Positions 28,442 to 53,166 are shown, counted from the stretch's first letter. The stretch is DNA of 64,000 bases from Patescibacteria group bacterium (GCA_004322365.1 SCTS01000006.1:4777-68776); one strand, 5' to 3'. Program-made: numbers and translations. Notes: generated by a model not told the origin, from the letters alone.

Positions 28442-28505
28442 ATTACCTAACTTCTAGCTTACAGGTGACAGCTTATAGGTTTTAGCTTTAAACTTCAACC
28501 TTTAT

Positions 28506-28541
28506 AACAAAAAACACCCTGCGGGAAGCAGGGTGTTTTTT
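28506..28541. terminator. bidirectional rho-independent terminator
   Basis: AAAAAA-CACCCTGC-ggga-AGCAGGGTG-TTTTTT. Confidence 0.75.
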
Positions 28542-28551
28542 AGAGTAAGAG

Positions 28552-29181
28552 TTAGTTTGCTTTTGCGGATGCCTCTGCATTCAAGGATGCAATAATGGCA
28601 TTTACTATTTGTGCTCGGGTTTCGTTTGAAACCTGAGCGCCAGCACCTGCTTTAATTTGAGCATTAGCTTTGAGTGAGGTTTCAATGTCGTTTTCAACTT
28701 TTGATACGCCACCAACAAGGAAGCTCCACCATGGCAACTTAACCGTTACCGTTACATTGCCATCAGCGTCACTCTTCACTTTTGTGTGAGATGTAATTTT
28801 CATTGGAATAAATCCCAAGAATCGCACCTTATGCTGGTATGCCACCTCTACACTACCGTCTTCATTGGCCTCAACGGCTTCAACGTTTTCATTCTTTGAT
28901 TCAACATCATCAGAGAATGATTTGAACTCAGTATCTACATCACCTGACATCTCTTCTTGATCATCAGAAACGTCAACTTTTACATTAGCAATTGTTTCAT
29001 TTTTTTCAGAGTCAGTTTCTATTCCAGTCGAACTCTTCACGTCTCCACGCACACCGACATCTACTGAGACACCGGAACCTGAGTTAGCCATAACTTCAGT
29101 GTTTCCATATAGAGACGCTGCTCCTACAGAAAGAGGAAGTACGAGAAGTGCGATAGGCAATAATTTTATAGCTGTTTTCAT
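28552..29181 (-). CDS. secreted acidic protein of unknown function
   Basis: Clear signal peptide (MKTAIKLLPIALLVLPLSVGAASLYG). No family recognised. Confidence 0.4.
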   Translation of the reverse strand: MKTAIKLLPIALLVLPLSVGAASLYGNTEVMANSGSGVSVDVGVRGDVKSSTGIETDSEKNETIANVKVDVSDDQEEMSGDVDTEFKSFSDDVESKNENVEAVEANEDGSVEVAYQHKVRFLGFIPMKITSHTKVKSDADGNVTVTVKLPWWSFLVGGVSKVENDIETSLKANAQIKAGAGAQVSNETRAQIVNAIIASLNAEASAKAN

Positions 29182-29298
29182 TTTATTAAATTACTTAAAA
29201 GACTTTTTAAATACCCCAAGACCTAGGGCACTAAAAGTATAAGACGGCTGTAGTAATGAACACTTACAGTGTTCCCGAATGCAATTTCTAGTTTTAAT

Positions 29299-29340
29299 TC
29301 CTGAAAGCTGAAAGCTGGAACCTGGAACCTGACACCTAGC
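29299..29340. repeat. degenerate heptamer tandem array (GCTGAAA GCTGAAA GCTGGAA CCTGGAA CCTGACA CCTAGCT)
   Basis: Read from sequence. Member of the leader-associated heptamer family (see findings). Confidence 0.6.
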
Positions 29341-30367
29341 TTTGAGCCAGTTCCATTATCGCGAGCTCTAAAGGCAACTGCGGAACGGGAGAACGAGGAA
29401 TTTCTATGGAAGCGAGGATGAACTTTCTGAGAGTTTCAGAATTTATTTTTGATTTTGTATCTTTAGCGAGAGCTTCCAAGAATGCTCGATCAGTATCAGC
29501 AAGATCGCTTGCGAGTTCTTTACCAAATTCAGGTGAGTAGCGAAGCATCAAAAGTACACGCAAGCGTTGAAGAAGAAGCATTGCAAACACATTCATGTCT
29601 GCATTCGCCTTCGTTGCCTCCCCTATTGCCTGAAGTGCGCCATCAGATTTCCCTTCACTTAAATCCATAATAACTTTCTCCACGAGCTCAAGGCGAGGCG
29701 CCCCAGTAACAAGCACTGCTTCTTCGACGCTTACTTTCTTATCCGAAGAGGACGCAAGGATTTTTTGAAGTGTTCCGTGTGCATCTCGAAATGATCCATC
29801 AGCAAGAAGTGAAATTAATTCTGCCGCTGCAGGTTCCAAGCTGAAGCCTTCAGCTTTTGCCACCCTTGTTACCATTTCCACCAAAACTTTCTGTGTAGGT
29901 TTTTTAAAAGTAAATACTTGGCAACGCGACTGAATAGTTTCAGGAACTTTTTCCAGCTCAGTAGTTGCGAGAATAAACACCACATGTGAAGGAGGCTCTT
30001 CAAGAATTTTCAAGAACGCATTGAAGGCACCTTTCGAGAGCATGTGCACTTCATCAATGATGTATACCTTCCGTGGTGACTCAAACGGCATCACAAACGC
30101 TTCTTCACGAAGCTGGCGAATATTATCAACACCTGTGTTTGAAGCGGCATCCATTTCATAGATATCACGCTCGCTTGCACCAAGCTCACGAGCAAGAATT
30201 CGAGCAACAGAAGTCTTCCCTGTTCCTCGAGAACCTATAAACAAATATGCATGCGCAGGATGTTTTTCTTTAAGCGCTCCTTCAAGCACTTTAACCACAT
30301 GATCTTGCCCCAAAACATCCTTGAATGTTGTAGGTCGGTATTTCCTGTAGAGAGAAAGATCTGACAT
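29336..30367 (-). CDS. dnaX: DNA polymerase III subunit gamma/tau (short form)
   Basis: YRKYRPTTFKDVLGQ, Walker A GSRGTGKTS, DEVHML box. Start trimmed to MSDLSLYRKY. Confidence 0.8.
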   Translation of the reverse strand: MSDLSLYRKYRPTTFKDVLGQDHVVKVLEGALKEKHPAHAYLFIGSRGTGKTSVARILARELGASERDIYEMDAASNTGVDNIRQLREEAFVMPFESPRKVYIIDEVHMLSKGAFNAFLKILEEPPSHVVFILATTELEKVPETIQSRCQVFTFKKPTQKVLVEMVTRVAKAEGFSLEPAAAELISLLADGSFRDAHGTLQKILASSSDKKVSVEEAVLVTGAPRLELVEKVIMDLSEGKSDGALQAIGEATKANADMNVFAMLLLQRLRVLLMLRYSPEFGKELASDLADTDRAFLEALAKDTKSKINSETLRKFILASIEIPRSPVPQLPLELAIMELAQS

Positions 30368-30750
30368 TTGCCCAAAGTATAACAGAATACCCAGTTGGGT
30401 TTTCAACTCAAATGTTTCCTCTATTTCCCAGTCTCGCTAACTCAGCTTCTGCACCCTTCCAGCCCGCTTCATCCTTTTCTTTCAAGTTACCCCCAATTCT
30501 CCCGTTACGAAAAATGCCGTTCGGGCCAATAATAAAACGATAAAACACACCTCCGAGCTGTATATTTCTTGCTATCTCTTTTCCTGGCTCATTCATAGAC
30601 GAATAATGGATTAATCAATACAAAAGGTCAAATTACCGTATTTTAATTACGACCCCACTTCCCTCTGCCTCTCACTCATTCTCACAACACACATATATAC
30701 CCCTTATTCGCACTAATAAGGGGTATATATTCAAAAAAGTTTTCCGTGAG

Positions 30751-31074
30751 TTATTGCGACTTAACAATTTTCTTGGCGACCGCTCCAACAAAAAGACGAT
30801 ACGCTGGCCGGTCCTCCTTTTTGTATGTAATGAGTGCACCAAGAACTCTTTCACAGTGTTCACAAACTAACTGCTTCGCGGTTCGAGTAGATTCTGGAAT
30901 CATCCTATCGGTATACAGACGCTTCAACATTCCCGGTCCATCTTTTTGATAGAGACAAATCACAGCCTTGCAACCCTCACACGAAAGCTCTAGCAAGCGT
31001 GAATACCCACCTCTCGTACGCCGATAGGCATCCTTTTTGAATACAATCGATTTCTTTACACTTTTTCTTTTCAT
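30751..31074 (-). CDS. zinc-ribbon-like protein, paralog 1 of 33201-33533
   Basis: Two CxxC pairs (CEGC..CEHC). Shares ELSCxxC..YQKDG.G.L.R.Y..R ... AYRL with the paralog. Confidence 0.4.
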   Translation of the reverse strand: MKRKSVKKSIVFKKDAYRRTRGGYSRLLELSCEGCKAVICLYQKDGPGMLKRLYTDRMIPESTRTAKQLVCEHCERVLGALITYKKEDRPAYRLFVGAVAKKIVKSQ

Positions 31075-31098
31075 ACTGTATATCCAAGGTACCACGCA

Positions 31099-31656
31099 CT
31101 ATTCCTTTGACTCTTTCGTTAGACTCTCCAAGTACCCCCTATAGATTGTTTCCGCGACTTCCTTAGTGTGCCCCTCATGATTAACGACAGAAAGTTCAAA
31201 TGTCTCCTTACTCTCGCCCATTCTTTCTATCTCCTCTTCACTCTCCCTCATTCTCTCTGGTCTACTCTTCAAGCGTTCCCGTAATATTTCTAGAGAAGGT
31301 GGGTATACATACACTATATAGAGTTGACCGGGAAATATTTTTTTTACTACATCAAGTCGAGAAATAGGAAAATCAAGAACAGGAAAATTACCAGAATCAA
31401 AAGCATCTACTATAGGTTCATATGGTGTACCGTAGCTAATCCCATACAATTCATTAACTATAACGAATTTACCTGCATCTTCTAATTCTTTAAAAGTCTC
31501 CTTGTCCACACTTACCTTCTCATCCTCTCCTTCCCGCAACGGGCGAGTCATAAAAGGAGAAATGTATACGAAGCGAGGGTCTAATTTTTTCAATTCATTT
31601 ATTATGGTGCTTTTCCCAACCCCCGATGCACCAAGTAGAAGCAAGAATTTACTCAT
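31099..31656 (-). CDS. guanylate-kinase-like P-loop nucleoside-monophosphate kinase
   Basis: GASGVGKST Walker A, TRPLREGE (compare Gmk TRxPRxGE), ..YGISYGTP. Divergent. Confidence 0.5.
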   Translation of the reverse strand: MSKFLLLLGASGVGKSTIINELKKLDPRFVYISPFMTRPLREGEDEKVSVDKETFKELEDAGKFVIVNELYGISYGTPYEPIVDAFDSGNFPVLDFPISRLDVVKKIFPGQLYIVYVYPPSLEILRERLKSRPERMRESEEEIERMGESKETFELSVVNHEGHTKEVAETIYRGYLESLTKESKE

Positions 31657-32488
31657 TTCGAAATTTATTAACCTCATCTTTCATTCGATTCAATTCAACA
31701 GCAACATTATCGCGCCAATTTTTATCTTCTGTGCTATACGGATACAGAATTTTTCGAGATGAATTAATGAATACACCTCTTTTTTTACTGTCTAAAAAAT
31801 CAGTAATGTTCGTTGCATCCCCACCCTGTGCGCCGTATCCAGCTAACAAAATAGGTATATCGTCCGGGATACTAGAGCGTGGGCTTGTAGAATACTCCGC
31901 AAGCGAAGAAAGCACCGGGATAAGATTCTGAGCAGTATTCCATTCATTCACAGTTAAATCGAGTACATGTTCCCACATTTTTCTCCCGTCGAGCGCTGGT
32001 AAATCTTGAACGGAACTATCATTACTTGTCTTTACAAGAACAATGCCTGCTTTCTCGGGCCGATTTCTCACAATGTTTAAAACGTCTTCTCCCATATATG
32101 GGTTCAAGACAACTCCGTCAGCATCCAACTCATCAAAAATAAGTGACCCGTATGCTTCCATCGTATTATCAATGTCGCCAATTTTACAATCTACAAAAAC
32201 AGGTATGTCAGAATACTTTAGGTGTATATATTGAATAATATTTTTTAAAAGTGAGTGCCCCTGTGGATACAAATCAAAAAATGCTTTCTGAATTTTATAC
32301 GAGCACACACCTTCGCCTGTAATGTCGACAATGGTTGTCAAAAAACTATAGATTTTCTCTTCGCGATTTTCGATAGCAGAATCACGTGTGTATTCCTCTG
32401 GCATTTTTGACCAATCAGGGTCAAGACCTACACAAATAAGCGAATCGTTCTTCACCATTGCTCTGTCAAGCTTTTCAAGAGTACTCAT
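31649..32488 (-). CDS. pyrF: orotidine-5'-phosphate decarboxylase (long type 2 form)
   Basis: LICVGLDPD and FVDCKIGDIDNTM (K-x-x-D-I-x-x-T) motifs. Confidence 0.8.
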   Translation of the reverse strand: MSTLEKLDRAMVKNDSLICVGLDPDWSKMPEEYTRDSAIENREEKIYSFLTTIVDITGEGVCSYKIQKAFFDLYPQGHSLLKNIIQYIHLKYSDIPVFVDCKIGDIDNTMEAYGSLIFDELDADGVVLNPYMGEDVLNIVRNRPEKAGIVLVKTSNDSSVQDLPALDGRKMWEHVLDLTVNEWNTAQNLIPVLSSLAEYSTSPRSSIPDDIPILLAGYGAQGGDATNITDFLDSKKRGVFINSSRKILYPYSTEDKNWRDNVAVELNRMKDEVNKFRNE

Positions 32489-33204
32489 ACAAGATTGAGA
32501 TGTCCTAATTTGTCTTGCTTGGCACGCAAATGTGGCTCCGTAAGCTCGGTAGGCTGAATAACCACTGGCATTACCTCATGAATCGTATAACCGTTCTCAG
32601 CAAAAACTTGCATTTTCTTTGGGTTATTTGTAGCCAACTCAATCTTCGTTGATGTTGGTATATTGAAAAATTTCAAAATTGCAATTACACCACGGTAACT
32701 TCTAACATCTATTTCGCCATGAGTTAAAGAATGTGCGGCATCAACGGTATCTAAGCCGAGATCGTGCTGCAGTAATAATGTAGCAAGTTTAAATGCCAAA
32801 CCTTTACCGCGTCCATCTTGCTGAGGTATGTGTACAATCATACCCTCTCCCTTTGCCTGTATATCTTCCATTGTTTTGTGAAGCTGATCTTTGCAGTCAC
32901 ATGTTCTATCCCCAAAAACCTGACCAGTCTCACAGCCGGAGTCTATACGAATCGTTAATAAGTCTCTATTTCTAAAAACAGGAGAAAGAGATTGATCTAA
33001 TTCTGCATTAATAAGCACAGAATATTTCTGCCACTTATCACTTACTCTAAATAAAAACTGATGAAACATACCCTCCTCAGGCTTAATTATGCCCACCCCC
33101 TCTCTTTTGACTGTAATGTTGTGCACTTTACCAGCCTCAGTAACAGACACACGCCTCTTGATTGGGCGCATGCTTAATTTTGCTCTTTCAAGTGATTCAC
33201 TCAT
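32485..33204 (-). CDS. GTP cyclohydrolase II (RibA)-like enzyme
   Basis: Zinc motif C-x2-G-x8-C-x-C (SGCETGQVFGDRTCDCKDQL) with RibA spacing. Embedded in the pyrimidine cluster. Confidence 0.6.
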   Translation of the reverse strand: MSESLERAKLSMRPIKRRVSVTEAGKVHNITVKREGVGIIKPEEGMFHQFLFRVSDKWQKYSVLINAELDQSLSPVFRNRDLLTIRIDSGCETGQVFGDRTCDCKDQLHKTMEDIQAKGEGMIVHIPQQDGRGKGLAFKLATLLLQHDLGLDTVDAAHSLTHGEIDVRSYRGVIAILKFFNIPTSTKIELATNNPKKMQVFAENGYTIHEVMPVVIQPTELTEPHLRAKQDKLGHLNLV

Positions 33205-33533
33205 GATATATGGTTCTTTTTTGAAAATCGTCCTCGAATAAGGCGATATGCCAATCTGTCGTCTATATGTCGCATAGGTAGCCCAATAATGGAATCGCAA
33301 GAAATACAAGAAAAATTTGGCATATCTCGCTGGTCGACTATATCAGCGTCATATTGAAGGTTGGCATATGTATCGGGCCAAAAAATACGATTTAAGTAGC
33401 AACGGAACAAACTACCGCTACCGTCTTTTTGATAAACAAGCGTCTTTTCTTGACATGCAGTGCAAGACAATTCAATAAATTTTCCAAAACCCTCCCTAGC
33501 TCTGAAATACTTATCTTTTTTTAATTCGAAGCT
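33201..33533 (-). CDS. zinc-ribbon-like protein, paralog 2
   Basis: CTAC..CISC pairs; conserved blocks shared with 30751-31074. Start at MSFELKKDKYF. Confidence 0.4.
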   Translation of the reverse strand, partial: SFELKKDKYFRAREGFGKFIELSCTACQEKTLVYQKDGSGSLFRCYLNRIFWPDTYANLQYDADIVDQRDMPNFSCISCDSIIGLPMRHIDDRLAYRLIRGRFSKKNHIS

Positions 33534-33666
33534 CATTTTGTTTGAATGTAATATTCTGCTCTTTTTTTGAATACTGTCAAGTCTCACCAATTCCACACTA
33601 TCTTGGCGCTTTAATAACGATTCGTTTAAACAGAGCAAGATGGGAGGTGATGGTAGAATATCTGGA

Positions 33667-34737: not shown

Positions 34738-34741
34738 GCGC

Positions 34742-35641
34742 TTAACCAAGCAACAATTTCAAAAGTGCCATGCGCACAAGAACACCGTACTCTGCTTGCT
34801 TGAAATAGACTGCGTGCGGTGAGTCATCAACTTCAGGAGTTATCTCACCTGCCCGTGGAAGTGGATGAATGAGTATAGAGCCTTCTTTCATCTGATCAAC
34901 CAATGCGCGATCAATAACATACTTACCGCGAAGCTTTTCATACTGATCGTGATCGGGAATCCACTCTTCCGCAATACGTGTTTGATAGACAACATCGGCC
35001 TCGCGCATTGCTCCTACTAAATCATCTGTTTCAGTAAACTGAACACCTCTCTCTTTCAAATACTCTTTCACATCGTCTTTCATAGCAAGCTCGGGGCCAG
35101 ACACGAATGTCATTTTTACATTGTTGTATTTGGCGAGAAGATATGCGAGCGAACGAGCGGCACGATAATACGCGAGATTGCCGACGAATGCGATGTGAAA
35201 ATCATCAGTGCGACCTATCTCACGAAAAATAGTATACAAATCAAGAAAGGCCTGTGTTGGATGCTGACCGATACCATCTCCACCATTAATGACGGAGACT
35301 TCCGAAACAGCACCAGCCCTCGCGAGCATTCCCACTTCTGGATGACGAAGAACAATCACATCGGCGTAGTTGTCTACGATACGAACAGTGTCTTCAATAG
35401 TCTCCCCTTTGGTTGAAGAGGACGACTCACTTGCATTCTCCATTGAAATAACATGACCGCCGAGCCGATACATTGCTGATTCAAAACTTAAACGAGTGCG
35501 GGTGGATGGCGCAAAAAATAACGACGCCATTATCTTTCCATCAAGATCCTTTGTGCGCCTCCCTTCAAGAGAAGTCGCAACCTGAAAAAGATTATTTAGT
35601 GCTTCGCGATCAAACTGCTGAGTTTCGAGTATATGTTGCAT
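34742..35641 (-). CDS. pyrB: aspartate carbamoyltransferase catalytic subunit
   Basis: STRTR carbamoyl-phosphate motif (FFAPSTRTRLSFE), HPLPR motif. Confidence 0.9.
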   Translation of the reverse strand: MQHILETQQFDREALNNLFQVATSLEGRRTKDLDGKIMASLFFAPSTRTRLSFESAMYRLGGHVISMENASESSSSTKGETIEDTVRIVDNYADVIVLRHPEVGMLARAGAVSEVSVINGGDGIGQHPTQAFLDLYTIFREIGRTDDFHIAFVGNLAYYRAARSLAYLLAKYNNVKMTFVSGPELAMKDDVKEYLKERGVQFTETDDLVGAMREADVVYQTRIAEEWIPDHDQYEKLRGKYVIDRALVDQMKEGSILIHPLPRAGEITPEVDDSPHAVYFKQAEYGVLVRMALLKLLLG

Positions 35642-35644
35642 AAA

Positions 35645-35698
35645 CTAGGTGTTAGGGGTTAGCGTTTAGGCGATGCTTCATCGGATCCGTAGGGATCA
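35645..35698. repeat. leader element: heptamer array plus conserved 33-bp two-hairpin block (TGATCCCTACGGATCCGATGAAGCATCGCCTAA in gene sense)
   Basis: Near-identical 33-bp block recurs inverted at 42827-42859. Confidence 0.6.
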
Positions 35699-42780: not shown

Positions 42781-42826
42781 AGGGCGAGCCTACCACACAA
42801 CTTAACTTACGTGCGACTTGTTCCTA

Positions 42827-42888
42827 TGATCCCTTCGGATCCGATGAAGCATCGCCTAAAAGCTAGAAGCTATAACCTAGAACCTTCC
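42827..42888. repeat. leader element upstream of dus: 33-bp two-hairpin block plus heptamer array (AGCTAGA AGCTATA ACCTAGA ACCT)
   Basis: Block TGATCCCTTCGGATCCGATGAAGCATCGCCTAA is 32/33 identical to the reverse complement of 35666-35698. Confidence 0.6.
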
Positions 42889-42890
42889 TG

Positions 42891-43697
42891 TTATTCCCCT
42901 TTAAACTTTATATATACTTTGTCGCCAAAACGGAAATCTGCGTATTCAAACTCCTTGTTTTTTTTGAAGCTTTGGGATGCAAAAACTGATGCAATGTTTT
43001 CAAGGGTAGCCTGCTGGTTTGATGTAGTGCGAACAAACTTCAATACCCCACCGTCCGCAAACGCAAGCTCAACATCATTTGAAGTGCCATCAACAATAAC
43101 GGTCTCTGGAATGCGATGTATAGATGAAGCAATGCCAGTAACTAATGTATTGAGAGAAGCAAAACCGCCATCAAGGTATGTGCTACCAATAGGCACACTT
43201 GAAAGCGCCCCATAAAAACGAATCATCGGCGGTACATCCGTCACGGAAGCAAAAATAAATCCGTTTTTGTCGACACTGTAACAAGCTTCCTCTGCAGCAC
43301 CATCGCACCACAGAGCAGTCGCCCCTCGCTCTTCGGCAGTTACAGTGAGCACATTAAAACCATTTCGAGAGATGGTAATTTTTGCCAGTGGAGGAAAGGC
43401 AGTGGCTACGGCATTCTCTATATTTCTTTTTGGAAACAATAAGGAGTTTCTGTAGGGAATCCAATATGCGTATGAGCCATCCAATTTTTCTTCGACAAGT
43501 TTTTTAACTTCATCAGCTGAAACTATTGAAGTTCCTTTCACTTCAATTGAAGCAATTGTGGTTGCTGGAATACGCGCAAGAAACCACACAGCTATCAGCG
43601 ACAGAGCGACAACTGCACTGCCCGCAGCCACCTTCACCCACACTAATCGGCGTCGCCTATCTCGAAGACTAAGTTTTGGCTGTTGCGAATTTGGCAT
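42891..43697 (-). CDS. FtsQ/DivIB-like cell-division protein (TM + POTRA)
   Basis: Basic N-terminus, single TM, extracellular domain; in a division-site neighbourhood. Confidence 0.45.
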   Translation of the reverse strand: MPNSQQPKLSLRDRRRRLVWVKVAAGSAVVALSLIAVWFLARIPATTIASIEVKGTSIVSADEVKKLVEEKLDGSYAYWIPYRNSLLFPKRNIENAVATAFPPLAKITISRNGFNVLTVTAEERGATALWCDGAAEEACYSVDKNGFIFASVTDVPPMIRFYGALSSVPIGSTYLDGGFASLNTLVTGIASSIHRIPETVIVDGTSNDVELAFADGGVLKFVRTTSNQQATLENIASVFASQSFKKNKEFEYADFRFGDKVYIKFKGE

Positions 43698-43704: not shown

Positions 43705-44988
43705 TTAGGCCTTCAGTATATCCTTCCCTACATATTGCTGAAGAACTTTTGGAACACGGACTGTGCCATTTGATTCCTGATAATTTTCAAGAATAGCCGC
43801 GAGTGTGCGTCCCATAGCCACAAGCGTTGCGTCGTTCATATGTACAAATTCCATAGCACCGTCAGCGCGCTTTGTTCTGGTATTCAAACGACGAGCTTGG
43901 AACCCCCCCATGTAGTCTGAGGTATGTGTTTCGCGGTATGCGCCCTGCCCTGGCATCCAGGTGTTCATATCAAACTGTCTTTGATCTGGGAACCCCATAT
44001 CCGCGGTGCAAATTGAAATTACCTGATACGGCAAACCGAGGAGTTGTAAAAAATGTTCCTGAAGTGCCACCATAAAATCCTGCTCTTGATACCCTTCCTC
44101 TGGTTTCGTGAAGGTCTCCATTTCTACCTTATCAAAGTGGTGCATGCGAATTAATCCGCGCGTATCTTTACCGTATGAACCAGCTTCACGGCGAAATGAC
44201 GGTGAGTATCCAACATAGCGAATAGGTAGCATCTCTTCGGGAATAACCTCGTCCATGTGGATAGGTCCCAAAGTATGCTCTGCACTTCCAATCAACACTT
44301 CATCATCTTTTTCAAAATAGTACCGCTCATCTATAGGGTCGAGTCGTGCCATTCTATTCATCACGGCTGAACGCACCATATAAGGAGGGATAACGGGAAT
44401 GAAAGGCTTCGAAGAGACCTTTAGGCCAGAGCGCTCAATGACCCCCTTTAAAATGTCTTCGTCTGTAAGAACCTTCATTGCAAGATTGAGGAGTCCAAAT
44501 TGCATGAGTGCAAGATCTCCCATGAGGTATGCAAAACGAGCACCAGAAACCACCCCTGCCTTCTCAGAATTTATAATTCCTAAATCACTCCCTATTTCAA
44601 AATGTTGCCGTGGAGAAAAAGGGCCGAAGCTTCGTTTCTCACCCACTTCACGGAGCACCACATTCTCGTCCTCGCTAGCACCAATAGGTGTATCGGGTGA
44701 AGGAATGTTAGGAATCTTCAAAAGGAGTGCAACCAAATCTTTCTCTAGTGCTCCATGGCGAGCTTCAAGTGCCTGCAATTCTTCCTTAAGGAGTTTACCG
44801 GTTTCTATATCTCTCGTTGCAGCTGCTTCATTTCTTTTACGATTCACTTCTTCGATCCTTTGCTTCACGCCTTTACGCTCTTCGTGCAACTTCAATACTT
44901 CATCAATATCAACAGGCTTCCCTTTTTTATTTACAATCGCTGCGCGAACTATATCGGGATTATCTTGAATGAATTTGATGTCTAACAT
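43705..44988 (-). CDS. serS: seryl-tRNA synthetase
   Basis: N-terminal coiled-coil arm (MLDIKFIQDNPD..), class II motifs. Confidence 0.9.
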   Translation of the reverse strand: MLDIKFIQDNPDIVRAAIVNKKGKPVDIDEVLKLHEERKGVKQRIEEVNRKRNEAAATRDIETGKLLKEELQALEARHGALEKDLVALLLKIPNIPSPDTPIGASEDENVVLREVGEKRSFGPFSPRQHFEIGSDLGIINSEKAGVVSGARFAYLMGDLALMQFGLLNLAMKVLTDEDILKGVIERSGLKVSSKPFIPVIPPYMVRSAVMNRMARLDPIDERYYFEKDDEVLIGSAEHTLGPIHMDEVIPEEMLPIRYVGYSPSFRREAGSYGKDTRGLIRMHHFDKVEMETFTKPEEGYQEQDFMVALQEHFLQLLGLPYQVISICTADMGFPDQRQFDMNTWMPGQGAYRETHTSDYMGGFQARRLNTRTKRADGAMEFVHMNDATLVAMGRTLAAILENYQESNGTVRVPKVLQQYVGKDILKA

Positions 44989-44995: not shown

Positions 44996-45042
44996 AGGTT
45001 ATAGGTTACAGGTTACAGGTTACAGGTTTTAGCTTTAACAGC
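44996..45042. repeat. heptamer array AGGTTAT AGGTTAC AGGTTAC AGGTTAC AGGTTTT AGCTTTA in the serS/dprA divergent region
   Basis: Read from sequence; cleanest member of the family. Confidence 0.7.
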
Positions 45043-45081
45043 AAATCAGAAGTGCACAATACCACGAGCTATACTTGAACC

Positions 45082-45936: not shown

Positions 45937-45982
45937 CAGTATGGTTGACACGATTCAATTCATGCCGTACTAGTGTCTCGTA

Positions 45983-48373: not shown

Positions 48374-48620
48374 ACGAGAGGCGTCGGCAAATCCAGTGCG
48401 AGCAACATCACGAAATAAAGGCGCGTGTGGTGAACGGTAATTAATCAAGACTGCTGTAGCAAGATTCCAAGCAGCTAATTCTAAGTTAGTAGCTCTACGA
48501 GCTATTCTTGCAGGACTCATACGGCGAATCCTTCTCGGAGGTAAACTTTCGCGTGTAGTCATTTAAAAATTTTATATCAAATTTTGAGCCTATTGTCAAC
48601 GATAATGCCGAGATAACTTC

Positions 48621-48669
48621 ATAGGTTTTTGCTTTGAAAGCTAGCCCCTAAACACTAAACGCTATACAC
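48621..48669. repeat. heptamer-family leader element immediately upstream of the rsh start (..CTAGCCCCTAAACACTAAACGCTATACAC)
   Basis: Resembles the reverse complement of the pyrB leader array. Confidence 0.5.
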
Positions 48670-48676
48670 TATTCAC

Positions 48677-50209
48677 ATGCCTCATGCTACAGACGACATC
48701 ATCCGTGCGATGCAGTCCCCTTCCTCGGAAGATCAGAAAGCAATTCAGGTGGCGTATGAATTTGCAAAAGTAGCCCACGGTGAAGAAAAAAGAAAATCAG
48801 GTGAGCCATACATCATCCACCCAACTGCAATTGCAGTGACACTCGCCAAGCTCGGGATGGACCGCGAAACAATTGTTGCGGGAATTCTTCATGACACAGT
48901 TGAGGACACGCCCGTTACCATCGAAGAAATAGAAGAAAAATTTGGTGCAACAGTGCGATTTTTGGTTGAGGGGGTCACGAAGCTTTCGAAATTAAAATAT
49001 CGCGGAGTAGAGAGGCACGTGGAAAGTTTACGGCGTCTACTCGTTGCAACTGCAAACGATATTCGCGTCATCATCATCAAGCTTGCTGATAGGCTCCACA
49101 ACATGGAGACAATTAACTTCGTTGAACCTATTGAAAAACGAATGCGCATTGCGCTCGAAACGAAGGAAATATATGTCCCTATCGCCGAAAGACTTGGTAT
49201 CGGTTTAATAAAATCACAACTCGAAGATTTAGCATTTAAAACACTAGAACCTGAACGATACAAAAAAATTCACCAATTCTTGGAAGAGCGTGGAGAAACG
49301 GAAAAAGAAGCACTCGACAGAGCGCTTAATGACCTGCGCAAAGCACTTGCTGAAGCAGGTATACGCAACTTTAGAACAGAATCACGCGTAAAAAATGTTC
49401 ATAGTTTTGCCACGAAGCTCATTCGCAAAGGCAACGACCCCGACAAGGTATACGACATATTTGCGATTCGCATTATTGTTCCAACACTTGAGGACTGCTA
49501 TCGATCATTTGGAGTTATTCACAATATCTGGAGACCAATCCCAGGACGCATTAAAGATTACATCGCAAGCCCAAAGCCGAACGGCTACCGTACTCTCCAC
49601 ACCACAATCATCACTCCTCATAAGCTGATTATTGAAATTCAGATACGCTCTGAAGAGATGCAACAGGAAAGTAAGTTTGGGGTGATGGCACATTTCATAT
49701 ACAAAAACAAAAGTCAGGGCAGCGAGCCTGGAAAAGATTCAAAAATAGGATGGGTAGGACGCTTTGTTCCATCGCTCATGAAAATGACGCGCGCAGAAAA
49801 ATCTCTCACGCAAACCAGTACACCAACACCGCGTTGGCTCACAGACTTGAATACCGCAGCAGAAGATTTTGAGGGGGAGGAAGCATTTCACGATGCACTT
49901 CGTGAAGACTTTTTTGCACGAAGAATGTTTGTGTTCACTCCAAAAGGTGATGTTATCGACTTACCTATTGGCGCAACGCCGATAGATTTTGCATACGCAG
50001 TACACACAAATCTTGTTGACCTTATGTCTGGTGCTAGGGTAAATGGAAAAATGGTTGGTCTTGATACAGAGTTACACAAAGGGGATATTGTTGAAATACA
50101 AACAAAAAAAATAGGAGTGCCTAATAAAAAATGGCTTGAGTATACAAAAACTGCATCGGCTCGTCGCTACATCCGCGCAACATTAAAGAAGAAAGAAAAT
50201 AAATCCTAG
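48677..50209 (+). CDS. bifunctional (p)ppGpp synthetase/hydrolase, short RelA/SpoT homolog
   Basis: HD motif HDTVEDT, RelA_SpoT synthetase region, TGS domain. 510 aa, with no ACT-like C-terminal region visible. Confidence 0.85.
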   Translation: MPHATDDIIRAMQSPSSEDQKAIQVAYEFAKVAHGEEKRKSGEPYIIHPTAIAVTLAKLGMDRETIVAGILHDTVEDTPVTIEEIEEKFGATVRFLVEGVTKLSKLKYRGVERHVESLRRLLVATANDIRVIIIKLADRLHNMETINFVEPIEKRMRIALETKEIYVPIAERLGIGLIKSQLEDLAFKTLEPERYKKIHQFLEERGETEKEALDRALNDLRKALAEAGIRNFRTESRVKNVHSFATKLIRKGNDPDKVYDIFAIRIIVPTLEDCYRSFGVIHNIWRPIPGRIKDYIASPKPNGYRTLHTTIITPHKLIIEIQIRSEEMQQESKFGVMAHFIYKNKSQGSEPGKDSKIGWVGRFVPSLMKMTRAEKSLTQTSTPTPRWLTDLNTAAEDFEGEEAFHDALREDFFARRMFVFTPKGDVIDLPIGATPIDFAYAVHTNLVDLMSGARVNGKMVGLDTELHKGDIVEIQTKKIGVPNKKWLEYTKTASARRYIRATLKKKENKS

Positions 50210-50261
50210 CTCTACGCCGACCACTCCAAAGGATTTCAAGTTAAAAGATTAAAAATTTTCT

Positions 50262-50298
50262 CTTAGAAAAAATTCACCCATATATGGGTGAATTTTTT
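50262..50298. terminator. bidirectional rho-independent terminator
   Basis: AAAAAA-TTCACCCATATATGGGTGAA-TTTTTT. Confidence 0.7.
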
Positions 50299-50321
50299 AA
50301 AGATATACTGCGGAGGATTTT

Positions 50322-50345
50322 CCAGTGACTTGATATCAAGTCACT
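50322..50345. promoter_or_regulatory. perfect 24-bp palindrome CAGTGACTTGATATCAAGTCACTG
   Basis: Read from sequence; 75 bp past the parB stop; no adjacent T-run. Confidence 0.4.
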
Positions 50346-50420
50346 GCCACCCTCTTTAAAATAAAATACCCCAAGATGAAACATTGGGATATTTTATCTA
50401 TTCTGTTATACAGACGGAAA

Positions 50421-51385
50421 CTAGATAGAGAAATGTTTCAAAGAAAAGTCATCATCATTCGAAGGAGGTGGAGGTACGGAAGCGAGTGTTGAAGGCACAT
50501 CTACCATATCATTTCTTTGTTCTTGAACCTCTGAGATAGGGCTCTCCACTTGAGGCGAAATACCACGGCGCTCCATATGCGCGAGCATACCTTCCAAATC
50601 TTCTGTTGAGAAAAAATCAATGATGAGCTTTCCTCCCTTTTCCTGCGCTTTAATTTCAACCTTTGTTCCTAACGACTCTGCGAATGCTCGTTCAAGTGCC
50701 TCGATTTGAGGAGTAACATCACGCTTTCGTGCTTTCTCCACAGCAATCTCACGCGTAATTTTTTCAACATCACGCACTGATAATTTGCGAATCATAATGT
50801 CACGAAAGACTGTCTTTTGTTCTTCGGGTCTGTCGGAGAGCATGAGTAATGCTCGAGCATGACCTTCGTAAATAGCACCACCAATAACCGCTTGTTGCAT
50901 TTCAGCAGGCAATGCAAGAAGGCGAATTGAGTTTGAAACATACTCGCGACTCTTCCCCACCTTCACAGCAATTTCTGAATTGTTTAAACTAAATTCTTTC
51001 TGCAAACGATCAAAGGCGCGCGCACGGTCAATGGCATTCAGATCTTCTCGTTGTAAGTTTTCAATGATAGCGAGCTCCAAGCGTACACGGCTCTGTTCTT
51101 CAGTGGAGCGAATAATAACAGGCACCTGAGAGAGGCCGGCAAGCTTTGATGCACGGAGCCGGCGCTCCCCCGCAATGAGTTCATAGTAGGTTGAAAGTCC
51201 GCCATCTTCACGCGACTCTTCGTATCGTGTGACCATAAGTGGCTGTAACACTCCGTATTGGCGAATAGAACCAGCAAGGTCTTTCAATTTTGCTTCATCG
51301 AACTCGGTACGTGGTTGATATTGGTTTGGCCGTATTTTTTCAACCTCGACCCAAAAAATTGCATCTCCTTGGAACTGTGACATGG
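50421..51385 (-). CDS. parB: ParB/Spo0J family partition protein
   Basis: ParB box (GERRLRASKLAGL..VPVII), HTH, C-terminal dimerisation region. Start trimmed to MSQFQGD. Confidence 0.8.
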
Positions 51386-51499
51386 GAAAATTGTAACACG
51401 AACACAAAAGAAGCGTGAGATAAAAAACCATCCTGTTTCTCAAAAATTGAGAAAATTCAAAAAAAATCAACCATCTAACCTACTCCCTACCACTCTTTA

Positions 51500-51543
51500 C
51501 CTGTATAGTATAATTTAACGGTCGTTAAATTATACTATACAGG
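51500..51543. promoter_or_regulatory. 44-bp perfect palindrome CCTGTATAGTATAATTTAACG-GT-CGTTAAATTATACTATACAGG (copy 1)
   Basis: 21-bp arms; contains TATAAT on both strands; second copy at 56610-56651. Confidence 0.6.
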
Positions 51544-51701
51544 TGGAATGGCGCGGGGGTTTTAGTTTTTTAAAGTATCGAACATGAATCTCTGATGCAG
51601 GTCATTCATCTAGCCTAGTATTGAATACAGCACGGCAACTAGACCTCACTGCTCCTTTCGGGTACTCTACACGGAGCAACGCACGAGTCCTAGTTGCACA
51701 G

Positions 51702-51782
51702 GCCGGAGTGGTGGAATGGTATACACGCACGACTCAAAATCGTGTCTCGCAAGGGATGAGGGTTCGAGTCCCTCCTCCGGCA
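51702..51782 (+). tRNA. tRNA-Leu (anticodon CAA)
   Basis: Manual fold: acceptor GCCGGAG/CTCCGGC, anticodon stem CACGA/TCGTG with loop CTCAAAA, long variable arm, T-loop TTCGAGT. Confidence 0.8.
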
Positions 51783-51833
51783 CTTGCCAAGCAAGAAGAC
51801 GGAGCACACTGCATTTCTGCAGTGTGGGAGAGG

Positions 51834-51875
51834 GGCTCGAAAAGCGGAAGACGCCTCGTCTCCCTATCGAGGGCC
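51834..51875. repeat. inverted copy (D) of the tRNA-associated repeat body (GGAAGACGCCTCGTCTCC hairpin core)
   Basis: Reverse complement matches ..CCCTCAAAGGGAGACGAGGCGTCTTGAGCTCGAAA of repeat A. Confidence 0.5.
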
Positions 51876-52000
51876 AGTGTTTTTTGCAACAAAAAACCGT
51901 GAGGCGGCGATTAGAAAATCGTGCCGAGAGGCTCTGCGACTTAAGGTGAACATGGGTGAACCTTAAAGTTCTAGGTGTGTTCCCCTTCCTTCTGGCACAC

Positions 52001-52450
52001 CTATATTTTTCTTGAATTGGTTGTAATAATATTCCAATCGTCCTTTTCTATAATCAAAAGACAATCAACAGGCTCATCCCATGGTTCACGGCTTAATTTC
52101 TCTTCAGAAAGTTGAGCTGGGCTCAAAACACCAATGCGTATCCAGTCTTGCGGTAACTCCTTGAGAAATCTATCGTACCAGCCTCCGCCACGCCCATGAC
52201 GTGTTCCAAAATGATCAAATTCCCTCCCGGGAATAAGAATACAAACTTTTTCATCCGCATGTGCCTCTAAAAGCGACAGTGCAAAATCATGCGGAGAAAT
52301 ATCCTTGTCTGCAAGAATGGAGCGCCCGGAGTTAAAAATTTTATTTTTAACTAGAAACTCATGTGGATTAGGCTCATCGCCCATCGGTGAATACCCAATG
52401 ATGGCATCCGCCTCACGAAGTTTTTCAAGAAGTTCTTCCTTGTCATTCAT
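52001..52450 (-). CDS. 5-formyltetrahydrofolate cyclo-ligase
   Basis: PGREFDHFGTRHGRGGGWYDRFL is the MTHFS signature. Start trimmed to MNDKEE. Confidence 0.75.
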   Translation of the reverse strand: MNDKEELLEKLREADAIIGYSPMGDEPNPHEFLVKNKIFNSGRSILADKDISPHDFALSLLEAHADEKVCILIPGREFDHFGTRHGRGGGWYDRFLKELPQDWIRIGVLSPAQLSEEKLSREPWDEPVDCLLIIEKDDWNIITTNSRKI

Positions 52451-52458
52451 CGATCCAA

Positions 52459-52495
52459 AAGCTGAAAGCTGTAACCTGACACCTGAAAGCTGGTC
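52459..52495. repeat. heptamer array GCTGAAA GCTGTAA CCTGACA CCTGAAA GCTGG between prx and 5-FCL
   Basis: Read from sequence. Confidence 0.6.
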
Positions 52496-53138
52496 AAATC
52501 TTTCCAACCAAATCCAAATCCCCTCCTTTCAGTGTATCGTCACCTGGTTTCCATGCAGCAGGACACACTTGACCTCCGTGAGATCGAACAAATTGAGCAG
52601 CTTGAAGCTTGCGAATAAGTTCTTGTGCAGAACGGCCAATTGAATTGTCATTGATTTCCATCGTAGAAAGAATGCCATCTGGATCAATGATGAATGTACC
52701 GCGGAGCGATAACCCTTCATCTTCCATGTGTTCAAGTCCATCATTTTCAATATAGGTCCCGAAAGCTCGAGCAAGTCTACCTGCAGTATCTGACGCCATA
52801 GGGAATTCAATTTTGGCTATTGCTGGCGATGTATCGTGCCATGCTTTATGCACAAACACTGTGTCAGCACTTACGCTGACAATTTCGGTATCTAAATTTG
52901 TAAAAACCTTATGAGAATCTGCTAGTTCTTCAAGCTCCGTAGGACACACAAAGGTGAAATCTGCTGGATAGAAAAACAACACGAGCCACTTGCCTTTATA
53001 GTCAGAAAGTCGAATTTTCTTGATTTTTTCGTTGTGAAATACCTCACATTCTAGGTCAGGAATCTGATGTCCAATGCGCACCATACTCACAAATCCTTCT
53101 GCTGTATCCTCGCTGTTGTCTTTTTTTTCTTTTGCCAT
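52494..53138 (-). CDS. peroxiredoxin (1-Cys/Prx6-like, AhpC/TSA family)
   Basis: Peroxidatic Cys motif FTFVCPTE. 214 aa. Confidence 0.85.
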   Translation of the reverse strand: MAKEKKDNSEDTAEGFVSMVRIGHQIPDLECEVFHNEKIKKIRLSDYKGKWLVLFFYPADFTFVCPTELEELADSHKVFTNLDTEIVSVSADTVFVHKAWHDTSPAIAKIEFPMASDTAGRLARAFGTYIENDGLEHMEDEGLSLRGTFIIDPDGILSTMEINDNSIGRSAQELIRKLQAAQFVRSHGGQVCPAAWKPGDDTLKGGDLDLVGKI

Positions 53139-53140
53139 TG

Positions 53141-53166
53141 CAGTTCTAATGAAGCTAGTTCTAACG
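53141..53166. repeat. short heptamer-family element (AGTTCTA ATGAAGC TAGTTCTA) abutting the prx start codon
   Basis: Similar to the reverse complement of the dus leader array. Confidence 0.45.

Follow-up and report, generated by a model that had tools for sequence, protein, structure and literature searches.

What are the short tandem arrays of a 7-nt unit that stand between unrelated genes of a Patescibacteria group bacterium, and what might they do there? We addressed this question on a stretch of 64,000 nucleotides (SCTS01000006.1:4777-68776; hereafter the window) and on related loci of candidate-phyla-radiation (CPR) bacteria. A sequence-only reading of the window had listed eight array sites and named the genes pyrB, dus, serS, dprA, rsh, 5-FCL, prx and miaA, all of which were confirmed by Pfam.

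The heptamer unit and the arrays of the window

The heptamer arrays are a real family, and low-complexity composition is excluded as their explanation. Three consecutive copies of AGSTKNY are found 14 times in the window with 0.00 expected from 100 dinucleotide shuffles, and position-weight scores over four units reach 25-37 for the arrays as compared to a maximum of 20.6 in 100 Markov-2 randomisations. A sample of 149 kb, made up of the window and four syntenic relatives, holds 34 runs of at least four AGNNNNN units (3.0 expected); in-phase AG at periods 5, 6 and 8-11 is at or near background, and only period 7 is enriched. The repeat unit is a degenerate heptanucleotide, (T/C)AG-(G/C)-T-(T/G)-N, in which only YAG-S-T is held. 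About six of its seven positions are constrained; A and G at unit positions 1 and 2 are invariant in 38/38 window units, whereas other positions vary. Arrays comprise 3-6 units, mostly 4-5: runs of three, four, five and six units were observed 9, 8, 11 and 1 times with 1.8, 0.15, 0 and 0 expected, two-unit runs show no excess (128 observed, 121 expected) and runs of at least seven units are absent. As previously stated, the arrays are not CRISPR. In this Patescibacteria (Paceibacteria) lineage the repeats occur as a class throughout the genome, with about one array every 4-5 kb, and the class to which they belong is widespread in CPR bacteria and has apparently not been described before. The genome scan also matched Moorena, Okeania and Trichodesmium, with mixed AGCT/AGGT units.

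The window contains eight arrays. Seven of them are intergenic, as had been claimed, though ORFs take up 92% of the window (p=2e-7), and its accessory, island-like thirds contain none. Seven of the sites listed earlier are true arrays. The remaining one, 53141-53166, lies below every threshold and consists merely of two AGTTCTA copies 14 nt apart, and a run within miaA had been missed.

Array 1 (28449-28504, AG strand plus, core of five units at 28456-28490) reads AACTTCT AGCTTAC AGGTGAC AGCTTAT AGGTTTT AGCTTTA AACTTCA. Its AG-5' end points to a tRNA-Gln 5' fragment (28424-28446, minus strand), and its counterpart in the relatives L001 and L171 lies 13 nt before an intact tRNA-Gln. The only other leader-side arrays of the window are those of pyrB, serS and rsh, each with its units on the antisense strand of the gene. 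Array 3, in the pyrB leader (35647-35674, plus strand), has four units (AGGTGTT AGGGGTT AGCGTTT AGGCGAT) and, read on the pyrB sense strand, stops 5 nt short of the ATG (35639-35641). Read likewise on the sense strand, the serS leader array (44996-45037, plus strand; six units, AGGTTAT, three times AGGTTAC, AGGTTTT, AGCTTTA) stops 7 nt short of the serS ATG (44986-44988), with no Shine-Dalgarno sequence, and the rsh leader array (48636-48670, minus strand; five units, AGTGTAT AGCGTTT AGTGTTT AGGGGCT AGCTTTC) stops 6 nt short of the rsh ATG at 48677.

The other intergenic arrays begin at stop codons. A trailer array of 5-6 units (29296-29337, minus strand; AGGTGTC AGGTTCC AGGTTCC AGCTTTC AGCTTTC AGGAATT) overlaps with its first AG the TAG stop (29336-29338) of a DNA polymerase III delta'/gamma-like gene (29336-30406). 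Array 4 (42851-42885, minus strand; five units, AGGTTCT AGGTTAT AGCTTCT AGCTTTT AGGCGAT) begins 5 nt past the stop of an FtsQ-like ORF (42891-43697) and is placed upstream of the dus promoter. An intercistronic array (52457-52491, minus strand; five units, AGCTTTC AGGTGTC AGGTTAC AGCTTTC AGCTTTT) begins 2 nt past the prx stop (52494), stops 6 nt before the 5-FCL ATG (52448-52450) and occupies the entire gap, with 40/41 nt matching L001. The assignment of the arrays to 5' leaders in the sequence-only reading thus stands for pyrB, serS, rsh and the tRNA-Gln fragment, and several arrays do abut start codons; the first two trailer arrays, however, adjoin an upstream stop, and the third fills an intercistronic gap.

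The array-like run in the miaA coding sequence (53562-53589, plus strand; four units, AGGTTTC AGCTGTC AGGTTTC AGCTTGG) encodes LRFQLSGFSLE, without insertion relative to solved MiaA structures, and its 7-nt AG phase is kept in L001, L003 and L006. The location of one array inside a coding sequence speaks against a reading of the arrays as RNA modules.

Strand polarity, promoters and terminators

Orientation relative to the gene had been described as not fixed. On the contrary, the AG strand has its 5' end directly at the adjoining gene, be it a coding sequence or a tRNA gene. All seven intergenic arrays of the window follow this rule. Of 102 CPR arrays, 61 have their AG-5' end no more than 10 nt from the boundary of a long ORF and 15 their 3' end (p=1e-7); at non-CPR loci the respective counts are 19 and 4. 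The rule is obeyed by tRNA genes as well (L152, the window, L001, L171). ATG-side arrays stand at a distance of 5-10 nt in 27/30 cases and never at 1-4 nt, and stop-side arrays, which across CPR loci number 42 vs 30 on the start side, begin in 34/42 cases at -2 to +6 nt relative to a stop codon of the same direction. Where two arrays share a spacer, 32 pairs converge and one diverges (p=8e-9).

That a protein can bind DNA with a 7-bp period is shown by the precedent of the omega repressor of plasmid pSM19035, which cooperatively recognises contiguous 7-bp heptads (WATCACW) in direct and convergent orientation, its dimers preferring both over divergent heptads. Period, contiguity and orientations are those of the CPR arrays; the omega arrays comprise 7-10 units on three plasmid promoters, are not genome-wide and are not tied to start or stop codons. 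It seems improbable, nevertheless, that the CPR arrays are double-stranded DNA operators bound cooperatively in 7-bp steps by a global regulator or nucleoid protein and acting as operator, roadblock or insulator. The scarcity of divergent pairs, the constraint on most unit positions, the size cap at 4-5 units, the conservation of arrays, genome-specific flavours compatible with protein co-evolution and a rule that holds at tRNA and protein-coding genes alike would agree with such operators. The fit is poor because it is start and stop codons and the ends of tRNAs that placement follows, with a precision of a few nucleotides, as at the stop-side arrays above, and not promoters. Moreover, an intrinsic terminator (hairpin plus T-run) is found within 90 nt after 11/50 stop-type arrays as compared to 32/600 random windows, a duplex-binding protein gives no reason for strand polarity away from the gene, and no candidate binding or reader protein was found in the window. 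The arrays are hardly operators positioned on promoters.

Promoter motifs are nevertheless close by. A TAnnnT hexamer precedes the ATG of many window genes by 6-9 nt. A putative extended -10 element of dus, TGGTAGGCT (42787-42792, minus strand), predicted from sequence, would lie 6 nt before the ATG, a leaderless-type spacing. Between serS and dprA, motif conservation points to back-to-back -10 elements (45056-45075): a serS-directed extended -10, TGGTATTGT (hexamer 45056-45061, minus strand), which is kept upstream of the array in 5/5 relatives, and a dprA-directed TATACT (45070-45075, plus strand) 6 nt before the dprA ATG. In L001 about 95 nt of arrays are inserted between the miaA promoter motif and the ATG; in L005 the same promoter motif without the inserted arrays makes miaA a leaderless gene. 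Some arrays (L001 prx, L135) lie upstream of the neighbour's promoter, outside its untranslated region.

Could the units themselves be tandem -10-like promoter elements, the last sense-strand unit, nAA(G/C)CT, lying 5-8 nt from the ATG? This is the -10-to-start spacing of the leaderless genes of the genome, and many window genes carry the hexamer mentioned above; the unit GTAACCT resembles the genuine element TGTAACAT at L005 miaA, and 4-5 units approximate the length of a core promoter. We consider this very unlikely all the same: it leaves the 42 stop-type arrays unexplained, a conserved -10 element already lies upstream of the array at serS, rsh and L001 miaA, the base that would give T at -12 in the gene-proximal unit occurs in 12/36 vs 10/50 (p=0.21), and a generic promoter scan gave no excess of sites.

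Hairpins accompany several arrays. A bidirectional intrinsic terminator hairpin (28505-28545), AAAAAACACCCTGC-gggaa-GCAGGGTGTTTTTT, sits between the ORF 28552-29181 and array 1 (fold of 28420-28548, z = -3.2). Attached to array 3 is the hairpin module GCTTCATCGGATCCGTAGGGATCA (35675-35698, plus strand) with two small stems, GATG-ctt-CATC and GATCC-gtag-GGATC; a second copy (42827-42850, minus strand) lies downstream of array 4 on the minus strand, and the module occurs in L005, L003 and L135 too. With 42827-42880 the module at array 3 forms a 54-nt inverted repeat (85% complementary), of which it is one arm.

The 24 close array pairs fold arm to arm, with on average 55% of arm bases paired and a mean z of -4.6. 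These hairpins show no co-evolution, because arms of one pair are hardly more complementary than arms from different loci (-0.825 vs -0.766 kcal/mol per nt, p=0.049). Specific pairing with the own gene was found neither between trailers and the gene's end (p=0.11) nor between leaders and the gene's start (p=0.6). In their real orientation 36 leaders are less structured than when flipped (-14.9 vs -19.9 kcal/mol, p=1e-6) and 50 trailers more so (-21.5 vs -18.5 kcal/mol, p=9e-6), differences that follow automatically from G/U-rich vs A/C-rich composition. The serS leader has a minimum free energy of -2.5 kcal/mol, and 198/200 shuffles fold at least as well.

Conservation and variation of the arrays

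Orthologous arrays of the window and L001 match at 153/174 positions (88%), including 45/60 variable positions, whereas identity at four-fold synonymous sites is 0.41, near saturation. Conservation in related genomes does not extend to the syntenic relatives at 63-69% SerRS identity, which have serS/dprA spacers of 23-69 nt and no arrays; any function of the arrays is therefore dispensable and lineage-specific. Across lineages their distribution is patchy. Units of one array are more alike than units across arrays (2.02 vs 1.41 of 3), gene-proximal units are more alike than distal ones (2.13 vs 1.67 of 3, p=1.6e-6), and the variable tail positions carry a genome-specific flavour (1.71 vs 1.38 matches of 3, p=1e-5).

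This likeness within arrays, greatest in the gene-proximal pair, together with the genome-specific flavours and the patchy lineages, would be consistent with selfish or neutral repeats, functionless products of local tandem duplication or of copy-paste of ~30-bp modules that would spread through a genome. So would the insertion of arrays between an otherwise adjacent promoter and ATG (miaA in L001 vs L005), their absence from the island-like thirds and the one array within miaA. Heptamers are, moreover, the commonest long simple-sequence-repeat class in prokaryotes according to Mrazek (2007), as cited in PMC4679880. Directional growth or insertion against coding sequences, until stopped by selection, would turn any RNA-level rule into a by-product; at the DNA level, the contact of the AG end with the left neighbour is one single fact, for which directional growth or targeted placement could suffice without RNA-level selection. 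On balance we regard functionless repeats as rather unlikely, since orthologous arrays are far better conserved than synonymous sites, A and G are invariant next to varying positions, and the size distribution, with its peak at 4-5 units, no two-unit excess and no long tail, is not as slippage would give. We also know of no mutational process that yields the required strand polarity relative to whichever gene adjoins.

Orthologous arrays can differ by one unit (six units at serS in the window, five in L001), and heptamer repeats drive phase variation in Haemophilus (PMC12721329). Contingency repeats whose unit number switches neighbouring genes on and off are, however, scarcely credible here: slippage works poorly on degenerate units, array length is small, housekeeping genes (serS, pyrB, rsh, prx) flank the arrays, and the sequence is conserved across species.

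A possible RNA-level role and related systems

With less than even confidence, we propose that the arrays work at the RNA level, as modules of the untranslated regions that lie at the boundaries of cistrons. Promoter and terminator motifs suggest that they are transcribed. Leader RNA would then carry the complementary, G-poor 'CU(A/G)' form, ending 5-10 nt before the AUG and leaving no room for a Shine-Dalgarno sequence. It may keep the approach to the start codon open, without G, upstream starts or Shine-Dalgarno-like motifs; other genes of the lineage look largely leaderless. In RNA that follows a stop codon or the 3' end of a tRNA one would find the G/U-rich 'YAG' form, beginning within -2 to +6 nt of the stop, possibly a pairing-prone 3' or intercistronic strip ahead of terminators or the next promoter. 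Both forms in one spacer would yield a hairpin whose base coincides with two cistron boundaries. Given that the YAG register never varies, that size is capped and that the variable positions have a flavour specific to each genome, something, a protein or a ribonuclease, may read the arrays in 7-nt steps.

An RNA with NAG every 7 nt is known from the HutP antiterminator site of Bacillus subtilis, UAG-N4-UAG-N4-UAG, a single locus that has two triplets of UAG and needs HutP. Like many CPR trailer arrays, it lies between an upstream gene and a terminator, but HutP cannot read the complementary form of the CPR leaders.

The literature yielded nothing on such arrays in CPR bacteria or on this unit, so that the view of the arrays as undescribed holds to this extent; heptamers at start codons have been described, however, in Beggiatoaceae, cyanobacteria and Bacteroidetes (PMC4679880; bioRxiv 10.1101/2022.06.06.494920). 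Most similar among known systems are the TAACTGA arrays of Beggiatoaceae and the heptamer repeats of cyanobacteria. TAACTGA direct repeats occur in marine Beggiatoaceae and some cyanobacteria and Bacteroidetes, with 2-6 copies per set and ~170 sets per genome; as to their function, S1, Csp and CsrA have been put forward as candidates (MacGregor 2015, PMC4679880). Like the CPR arrays they have a 7-nt unit in few copies per set, are overwhelmingly intergenic with a few copies inside ORFs, are phylogenetically patchy and stand, in one preferred orientation, a few nucleotides upstream of starts without ribosome-binding site. On the other strand TAACTGA reads AGTTATC, with the YAG-T phase of the CPR unit. 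The TAACTGA unit, however, is exact and the CPR unit degenerate, 132/170 TAACTGA sets lie toward a start codon and 12 toward a stop whereas stop-side arrays in CPR are no rarer than start-side ones, the commonest distance to the ATG is 1 nt instead of 5-10 nt, convergent pairs are frequent among CPR arrays, and the host phyla differ.

Cyanobacterial STRR heptamer families were reportedly described by Mazel et al. in 1990. In Nostoc PCC 7120 heptamer repeats lie near start codons and promoters (bioRxiv 10.1101/2022.06.06.494920). They too are intergenic tandem heptanucleotides, often <100 nt from a start codon or -10 element, for which a partner protein is suspected, but they comprise many unrelated units (TTTTGAA, GACYAAT, CCCCAGT, others), can be long and nearly perfect, and have no reported gene-boundary polarity rule. 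REP/REPIN elements are ~30 bp extragenic modules at gene ends, often in hairpin-capable inverted pairs (PMC3116915). With the CPR arrays they share gene-end position, inverted pairs, genome-specific families and patchiness across lineages; every single REP, however, is a palindrome rather than a heptamer tandem, and depends on a RAYT transposase.

Heptamer arrays and their distribution

A sequence-only reading had listed eight intergenic sites with degenerate heptamer arrays. Seven of these are clear arrays and one, 53141-53166, passes no test. The seven are found at 28449-28504 (+), 29296-29337 (-), 35647-35674 (+), 42851-42885 (-), 44996-45037 (+), 48636-48670 (-) and 52457-52491 (-), and every unit in them begins with AG. 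An additional array, absent from that list, lies inside miaA (53562-53589, +). The intergenic location was confirmed, since seven of these eight arrays are outside ORFs although ORFs make up 92% of the window (p=2e-7). The consensus of the 38 window units reads A (38/38), G (38/38), G/C (36/38), T (31/38), T/G (38/38), any base, and C/T (35/38). Three consecutive AGSTKNY units were observed 14 times (0.00 expected), and the position-weight scores of the arrays over four units range from 25 to 37, as compared to a maximum of 20.6 in 100 Markov-2 randomisations. A chance origin of the arrays is excluded.

For an unbiased test set, the window was combined with four syntenic loci from other genomes, L001, L003, L005 and L006 (149 kb in total), which were retrieved via SerRS, independent of the motif. 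Relatives' loci were reached via the proteins P0003, P0004, P0007 and P0009. In-phase AG over at least four units occurs 34 times at period 7 (3.0 expected), as compared to 0-9 matches at periods 5, 6 and 8-11 (2.5-4.5 expected). The sole other strong in-phase signal in the 149 kb is TA (26 versus 1.9 expected), which is the unit junction, T followed by A, so that the core is (T/C)AG. Runs of two units are found 128 times (121 expected), of three 9 times (1.8), of four 8 times (0.15), of five 11 times (0) and of six once (0), and the census contains none of seven or more. The preferred array size is thus about 28-35 bp, and the shape of the distribution is unlike a slippage tail. The arrays do not fit a simple sequence repeat, given the degenerate units, the length peak at four to five units, the missing excess of two-unit runs, the lack of runs of seven or more and the 88% conservation of orthologous arrays. 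Between orthologous arrays a single one-unit length difference was seen; phase-variation repeats are an unlikely explanation. The earlier rejection of CRISPR stands, as the units are contiguous 7-nt repeats without spacers whereas CRISPR has repeats of 24-48 nt and unique spacers. Rfam 15 matched tRNAs alone, both in a scan at gathering thresholds and in a scan of 28-54 kb at E-value<=1, and nothing at the arrays or at the hairpin module described below.

Concerning the distribution of the arrays, a scan of 185,579 species genomes with a pattern demanding mixed AGGT/AGCT units gave at least 118 loci. Among the matches listed, 62 loci are labelled candidate phyla radiation (CPR) or Patescibacteria, including Paceibacterota, Parcubacteria, Nomura-, Kaiser-, Uhr-, Doudna- and Peribacteria among others. 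By bases, CPR genomes account for no more than a few percent of a collection of this kind, and CPR are therefore strongly enriched among the matches listed. The non-CPR matches listed include nine Selenomonadales, seven mostly filamentous cyanobacteria, six Verrucomicrobia, six Chloroflexi and some Bacteroidota. On viral contigs, a loose five-unit pattern found mostly monotonous near-perfect heptamer microsatellites, which differ from the arrays, and the tightened mixed AGGT/AGCT pattern matched seven contigs. The syntenic relatives L248-L251 (63-69% SerRS identity) carry no arrays, and their serS/dprA spacers measure merely 23-69 nt.

Polarity and conservation of the arrays

Arrays were oriented by their AG strand and long ORFs were mapped mechanically. 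Orientation relative to the gene had previously been described as not fixed; it has to be replaced by a rule, according to which the sense strand carries the CT form before a gene and the AG form after it. Among the matches listed, 61 of 102 CPR arrays have their AG-5' end no more than 10 nt away from an ORF boundary, versus 15 with the 3' end so placed (p=1e-7), and in the non-CPR loci listed the counts are 19 and 4 (p=0.003). Two kinds of boundary occur, the ATG of a gene in divergent orientation and the stop of a co-directional one, with 42 arrays anchored at stops and 30 at starts among the matches listed. That arrays abut start codons proved correct: 27 of 30 start-type arrays lie 5-10 nt from the ATG and none lies 1-4 nt from it, and the CT form is always on the sense strand. 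Of the 42 stop-type arrays, 34 have a gap between -2 and +6 nt to the stop, TAG often overlapping the first AG. All seven intergenic window arrays keep the rule, and so do arrays at tRNA genes: in locus L152 one array begins 5 nt past a tRNA and a complementary array ends 8 nt before the next, and in L001 and L171 an array is found 13 nt ahead of tRNA-Gln. Spacers with two arrays hold them convergently in 32 cases and divergently in one. The distal array end has no tight position, being 2-250 nt away from the following gene, and usually fades into AG and then A-rich sequence. The arrays are thus a period-7-specific, size-capped and strand-polar class abutting the ends of coding sequences and tRNAs.

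The sequence-only reading had suggested a binding array for a regulator, i.e. a duplex-DNA operator array. Such an operator accounts for the size of the arrays, the convergent pairs and the genome-specific choice of bases at the variable tail positions of the units (flavour). However, it fails on codon anchoring and strand polarity, and it needs promoter placement, whereas the arrays are anchored to starts, stops and tRNA ends, many of them between a stop and a terminator. Within the window no candidate for a heptad-binding protein was seen. We regard an operator array as rather improbable. From reading of the sequence alone, clusters of primase start sites (CTG/CTA on the complementary strand) were dropped since the eight window arrays alternate in orientation and convergent pairs lie within 150 bp; likewise six-frame stop cassettes, as several window arrays have no stop codon, and parS half-sites, the 16S rRNA 3' end and Rho loading sites, for which most genomes show a partial match or none.

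Conservation in related genomes, proposed earlier as a check, was found. Orthologous array positions are present at serS/dprA, prx/5-FCL, rsh, tRNA-Gln, the pol III trailer and inside miaA. Arrays of the window and L001 match at 153 of 174 positions (88%) and at 45 of 60 variable positions, and the four-fold synonymous identity between the two is 0.41; their prx/5-FCL spacers match at 40 of 41 positions. L003 is closer to the window (91% nucleotide identity, four-fold identity 0.79) and has another flavour at serS and a hairpin module in place of the window's prx/5-FCL array. The view that the arrays are hypervariable is wrong, as those common to the window and L001 are strongly conserved and L003 is only 91% identical. 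The arrays are conserved beyond neutral expectation and lineage-patchy. The run inside miaA, which has counterparts in L001 (1520-1554) and L006 (1955-1982 and 1824-1851), does not represent an insertion when compared with solved MiaA structures, and its AG recurs every 7 nt despite changes in the encoded residues. The second array-like run in L006 miaA is on the opposite strand and at a different offset in the gene.

Units are more alike within an array than between arrays (2.02 versus 1.41 of 3), the gene-proximal unit pair is more alike than the distal one (2.13 versus 1.67 of 3, p=1.6e-6), and arrays at different loci of one genome share their tail flavour (1.71 versus 1.38, p=1e-5). A selfish or neutral repeat growing or inserting towards genes, the main rival explanation, accounts for this similarity gradient and also for polarity, patchiness and insertions, but fails on conservation, the size cap and the invariant AG; we hold it to be somewhat less likely than the RNA-level reading below.

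A possible role in RNA

Promoter and terminator motifs suggest that the arrays are transcribed. An extended -10 element (TGnTAYTNT) beside the dprA start points to serS upstream of the array in five of five relatives; its position predicts a serS leader of about 60 nt, mostly array, without a Shine-Dalgarno sequence. The rsh array is downstream of the symmetric partner of a TTGACA-17-TATAAA promoter. In L005, miaA shows leaderless spacing (TAACAT, 7 nt, ATG), and in L001 an AG and CT array pair of about 95 nt is inserted between an L005-type promoter motif and the ATG of miaA. Among the window genes, TAnnnT at 6-9 nt ahead of the ATG, a spacing of the leaderless type, is common and a Shine-Dalgarno sequence is rare, none being found at serS, pyrB and rsh. 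A hairpin and T-run within 90 nt downstream is found for 11 of 50 stop-type arrays, 1 of 34 start-type arrays and 32 of 600 random windows. A generic sigma-70 promoter/terminator scan was uninformative (26 promoter-like sites, 29 expected). Tandem -10 elements as an identity of the arrays were examined and set aside as unlikely. Hexamers resembling -10 elements are often back to back for divergent genes (45056-45075, 48571-48599, 42787-42792, and in the miaA-prx spacers of L001 and L005).

Fold predictions differ between the two forms. The serS leader has a minimum free energy of -2.5 kcal/mol and 198 of 200 shuffles fold as well or better; in the rsh and pyrB leaders the array parts are predicted to be unpaired. 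In 36 leaders, the real orientation folds less stably than the flipped one (-14.9 versus -19.9 kcal/mol, p=1e-6) and leaves the start region more open (unpaired probability 0.57 versus 0.50), and 50 trailers are more structured in the real orientation (-21.5 versus -18.5 kcal/mol flipped, p=9e-6). Little structure is predicted for a single array (means of -5.9 kcal/mol in the AG form and -3.5 in the CT form), and close pairs fold arm to arm, with a mean of 55% of arm bases paired (z = -4.6). Arm complementarity within pairs is barely higher than for arms across loci (p=0.049), so evidence for co-evolution is marginal. There was no support for specific pairing between a trailer and the end of its gene, or between a leader and the start of its gene, except that the prx 3' end is predicted to pair with the prx/5-FCL array (-23 to -29 kcal/mol in three orthologues).

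We tentatively favour the reading that the arrays act at the RNA level as modules of the cistron boundary, which some factor may read in a 7-nt register. In leaders, the array would keep open the approach to a start codon lacking a Shine-Dalgarno sequence. In trailers it would be G/U-rich and pairing-prone, and spacers with both forms would give hairpins. A bolder proposal, to which we give only a small chance, is a lineage-specific 'cistron punctuation' system, in which the arrays would be the cis half and a 7-nt-register reader would cut or mark RNA. This reader, a ribonuclease or a single-strand-binding oligomer, would recognise YAG/CUR arrays or the stem of an AG and a CT array. Transcripts would be cut or marked at the gene-proximal array edge, after stops and tRNA 3' ends and 5-10 nt before starts, by which polycistronic or read-through RNA would become near-leaderless mRNAs, in a host with promoters 6-9 nt before the ATG.

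Heptamer arrays near starts are already known in other bacteria, though unexplained there. Cyanobacterial heptamer repeats have been known since about 1990. In Nostoc PCC 7120, assorted heptamer repeats occur near start codons and promoters and their partner was not identified (bioRxiv 10.1101/2022.06.06.494920). The nearest described phenomenon are the TAACTGA arrays of marine Beggiatoaceae, an exact unit in 2-6 copies with about 170 sets per genome and no assigned function, mostly one to few nt upstream of start codons without a ribosome-binding site (PMC4679880). The arrays described here resemble them in having 3-6 units, in being intergenic and in their single orientation before starts without a Shine-Dalgarno sequence (serS, pyrB, rsh), and the opposite strand, AGTTATC, has the YAG-T phase in common. 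However, the unit differs, as window arrays follow AGSTKNY and none has TAACTGA or TCAGTTA units, and TAACTGA sets are mostly start-associated with few at stops, in contrast to 42 stop- and 30 start-anchored arrays here. Compared with a HutP-type site (NAG with 4-nt spacers on the transcribed strand), trailers show YAG every 7 nt on the sense strand and leaders carry the complement. In REP/REPIN each element is an imperfect palindrome, whereas here single arrays fold weakly and only pairs form hairpins. We found no literature linking CPR bacteria with heptamer repeats or naming these units. What is new is the degenerate, YAG-cored unit, together with a polarity at gene boundaries that is two-sided, the convergent pairing, the capped size and the wide occurrence across CPR lineages.

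CPR/Patescibacteria constitute a large share of bacterial diversity, almost all of it uncultured, and their gene-expression signals are barely known. At a density of about one per 4-5 kb, the arrays represent either an important level of untranslated-region architecture that has gone unrecognised, or a genomic parasite of a highly unusual kind. Polarity rule, size cap and flavours are concrete and testable and may bear on the cyanobacterial and TAACTGA repeats, both unexplained; the punctuation logic, if true, could also account for both. In practice, arrays flag true gene starts and ends, and they suggest that several housekeeping genes of this lineage are translated without a Shine-Dalgarno sequence.

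Genomic surroundings and associated repeats

SerRS (43705-44988) is identical to a protein of a 'Patescibacteria group bacterium' MAG, its nearest relatives being Paceibacterota and Kaiserbacteria-like. Pfam agrees with the earlier gene names (pyrB, Dus, DprA, RelA/SpoT, 5-FCL, peroxiredoxin and MiaA), and also finds a DHO dehydrogenase and assigns the gene at 29336-30406 as DNA pol III delta'/gamma-like. Window arrays are confined to 28.4-53.6 kb, a housekeeping block syntenic in relatives, with none at 1-28 kb and 54-64 kb; this clustering is significant given the available intergenic space (p=0.003). In the 1-28 kb block, which adjoins tRNA-Gln fragments, there are genes for an RND pump, a P-type ATPase, DsbD, a D12 methyltransferase and a HEPN protein. 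Those of the 54-64 kb block include genes for a T4SS pilin, a P-type ATPase and a GIY-YIG protein.

A hairpin module, AGGCGATGCTTCATCGGATCCGWAGGGATC, is located at 35675-35698 and 42827-42850, each time next to an array. It is a double hairpin of 24-30 nt, GATGCTTCATC followed by GGATCCGWAGGGATC, at the distal end of some arrays, and further copies are found in L005 (about 9915-9958), L003 (about 2630-2660) and L135 (about 4450-4480). Module and array copies form a 54-nt inverted repeat 7.1 kb apart, and the two inverted window copies of the module bracket the dus-carAB-pyrED block. A perfect or near-perfect palindrome of 44-46 nt, cTGTATAGTATAATTTAACGGTCGTTAAATTATACTATACAg, is present at 51499-51544 and 56608-56653 as well as in further Paceibacteria MAGs (loci L213 and L135), in some cases with heptamer arrays on either side. 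As TATAAT occurs in it in both directions, it may be a dispersed bidirectional promoter or mobile element. The rsh genes of the window (48677-50209) and L003 (4790-6322) have 99% nucleotide identity and a four-fold identity of 0.96, compared with 0.68-0.85 for neighbour genes, which indicates a putative recent recombination tract between the two lineages.

The tRNA-Gln gene (28277-28348, minus strand) is flanked by partial self-copies, of its 3' part at 27057-27076, 28014-28033 and 28194-28229 and of its 5' part at 28424-28446, and L171 has sequence in common with the window only down to about 28022. Judged by sequence, mobile DNA seems to have integrated repeatedly at tRNA-Gln, with the 1-28 kb accessory block as cargo. 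Dispersed repeats are also found beside tRNA-Tyr, tRNA-Leu and tRNA-Trp (60468-60515/63141-63188, 51843-51865/60498-60520 and 59163-59181/59543-59561); among them, a copy of the tRNA-Trp 3' end lies beside the GIY-YIG gene (59224-59457). The two P-type ATPase genes (7529-9823 and 60843-62762), paralogues located one in each accessory flank of the window, have a 117-nt stretch in common (7769-7885 and 61080-61196) with 74% identity.
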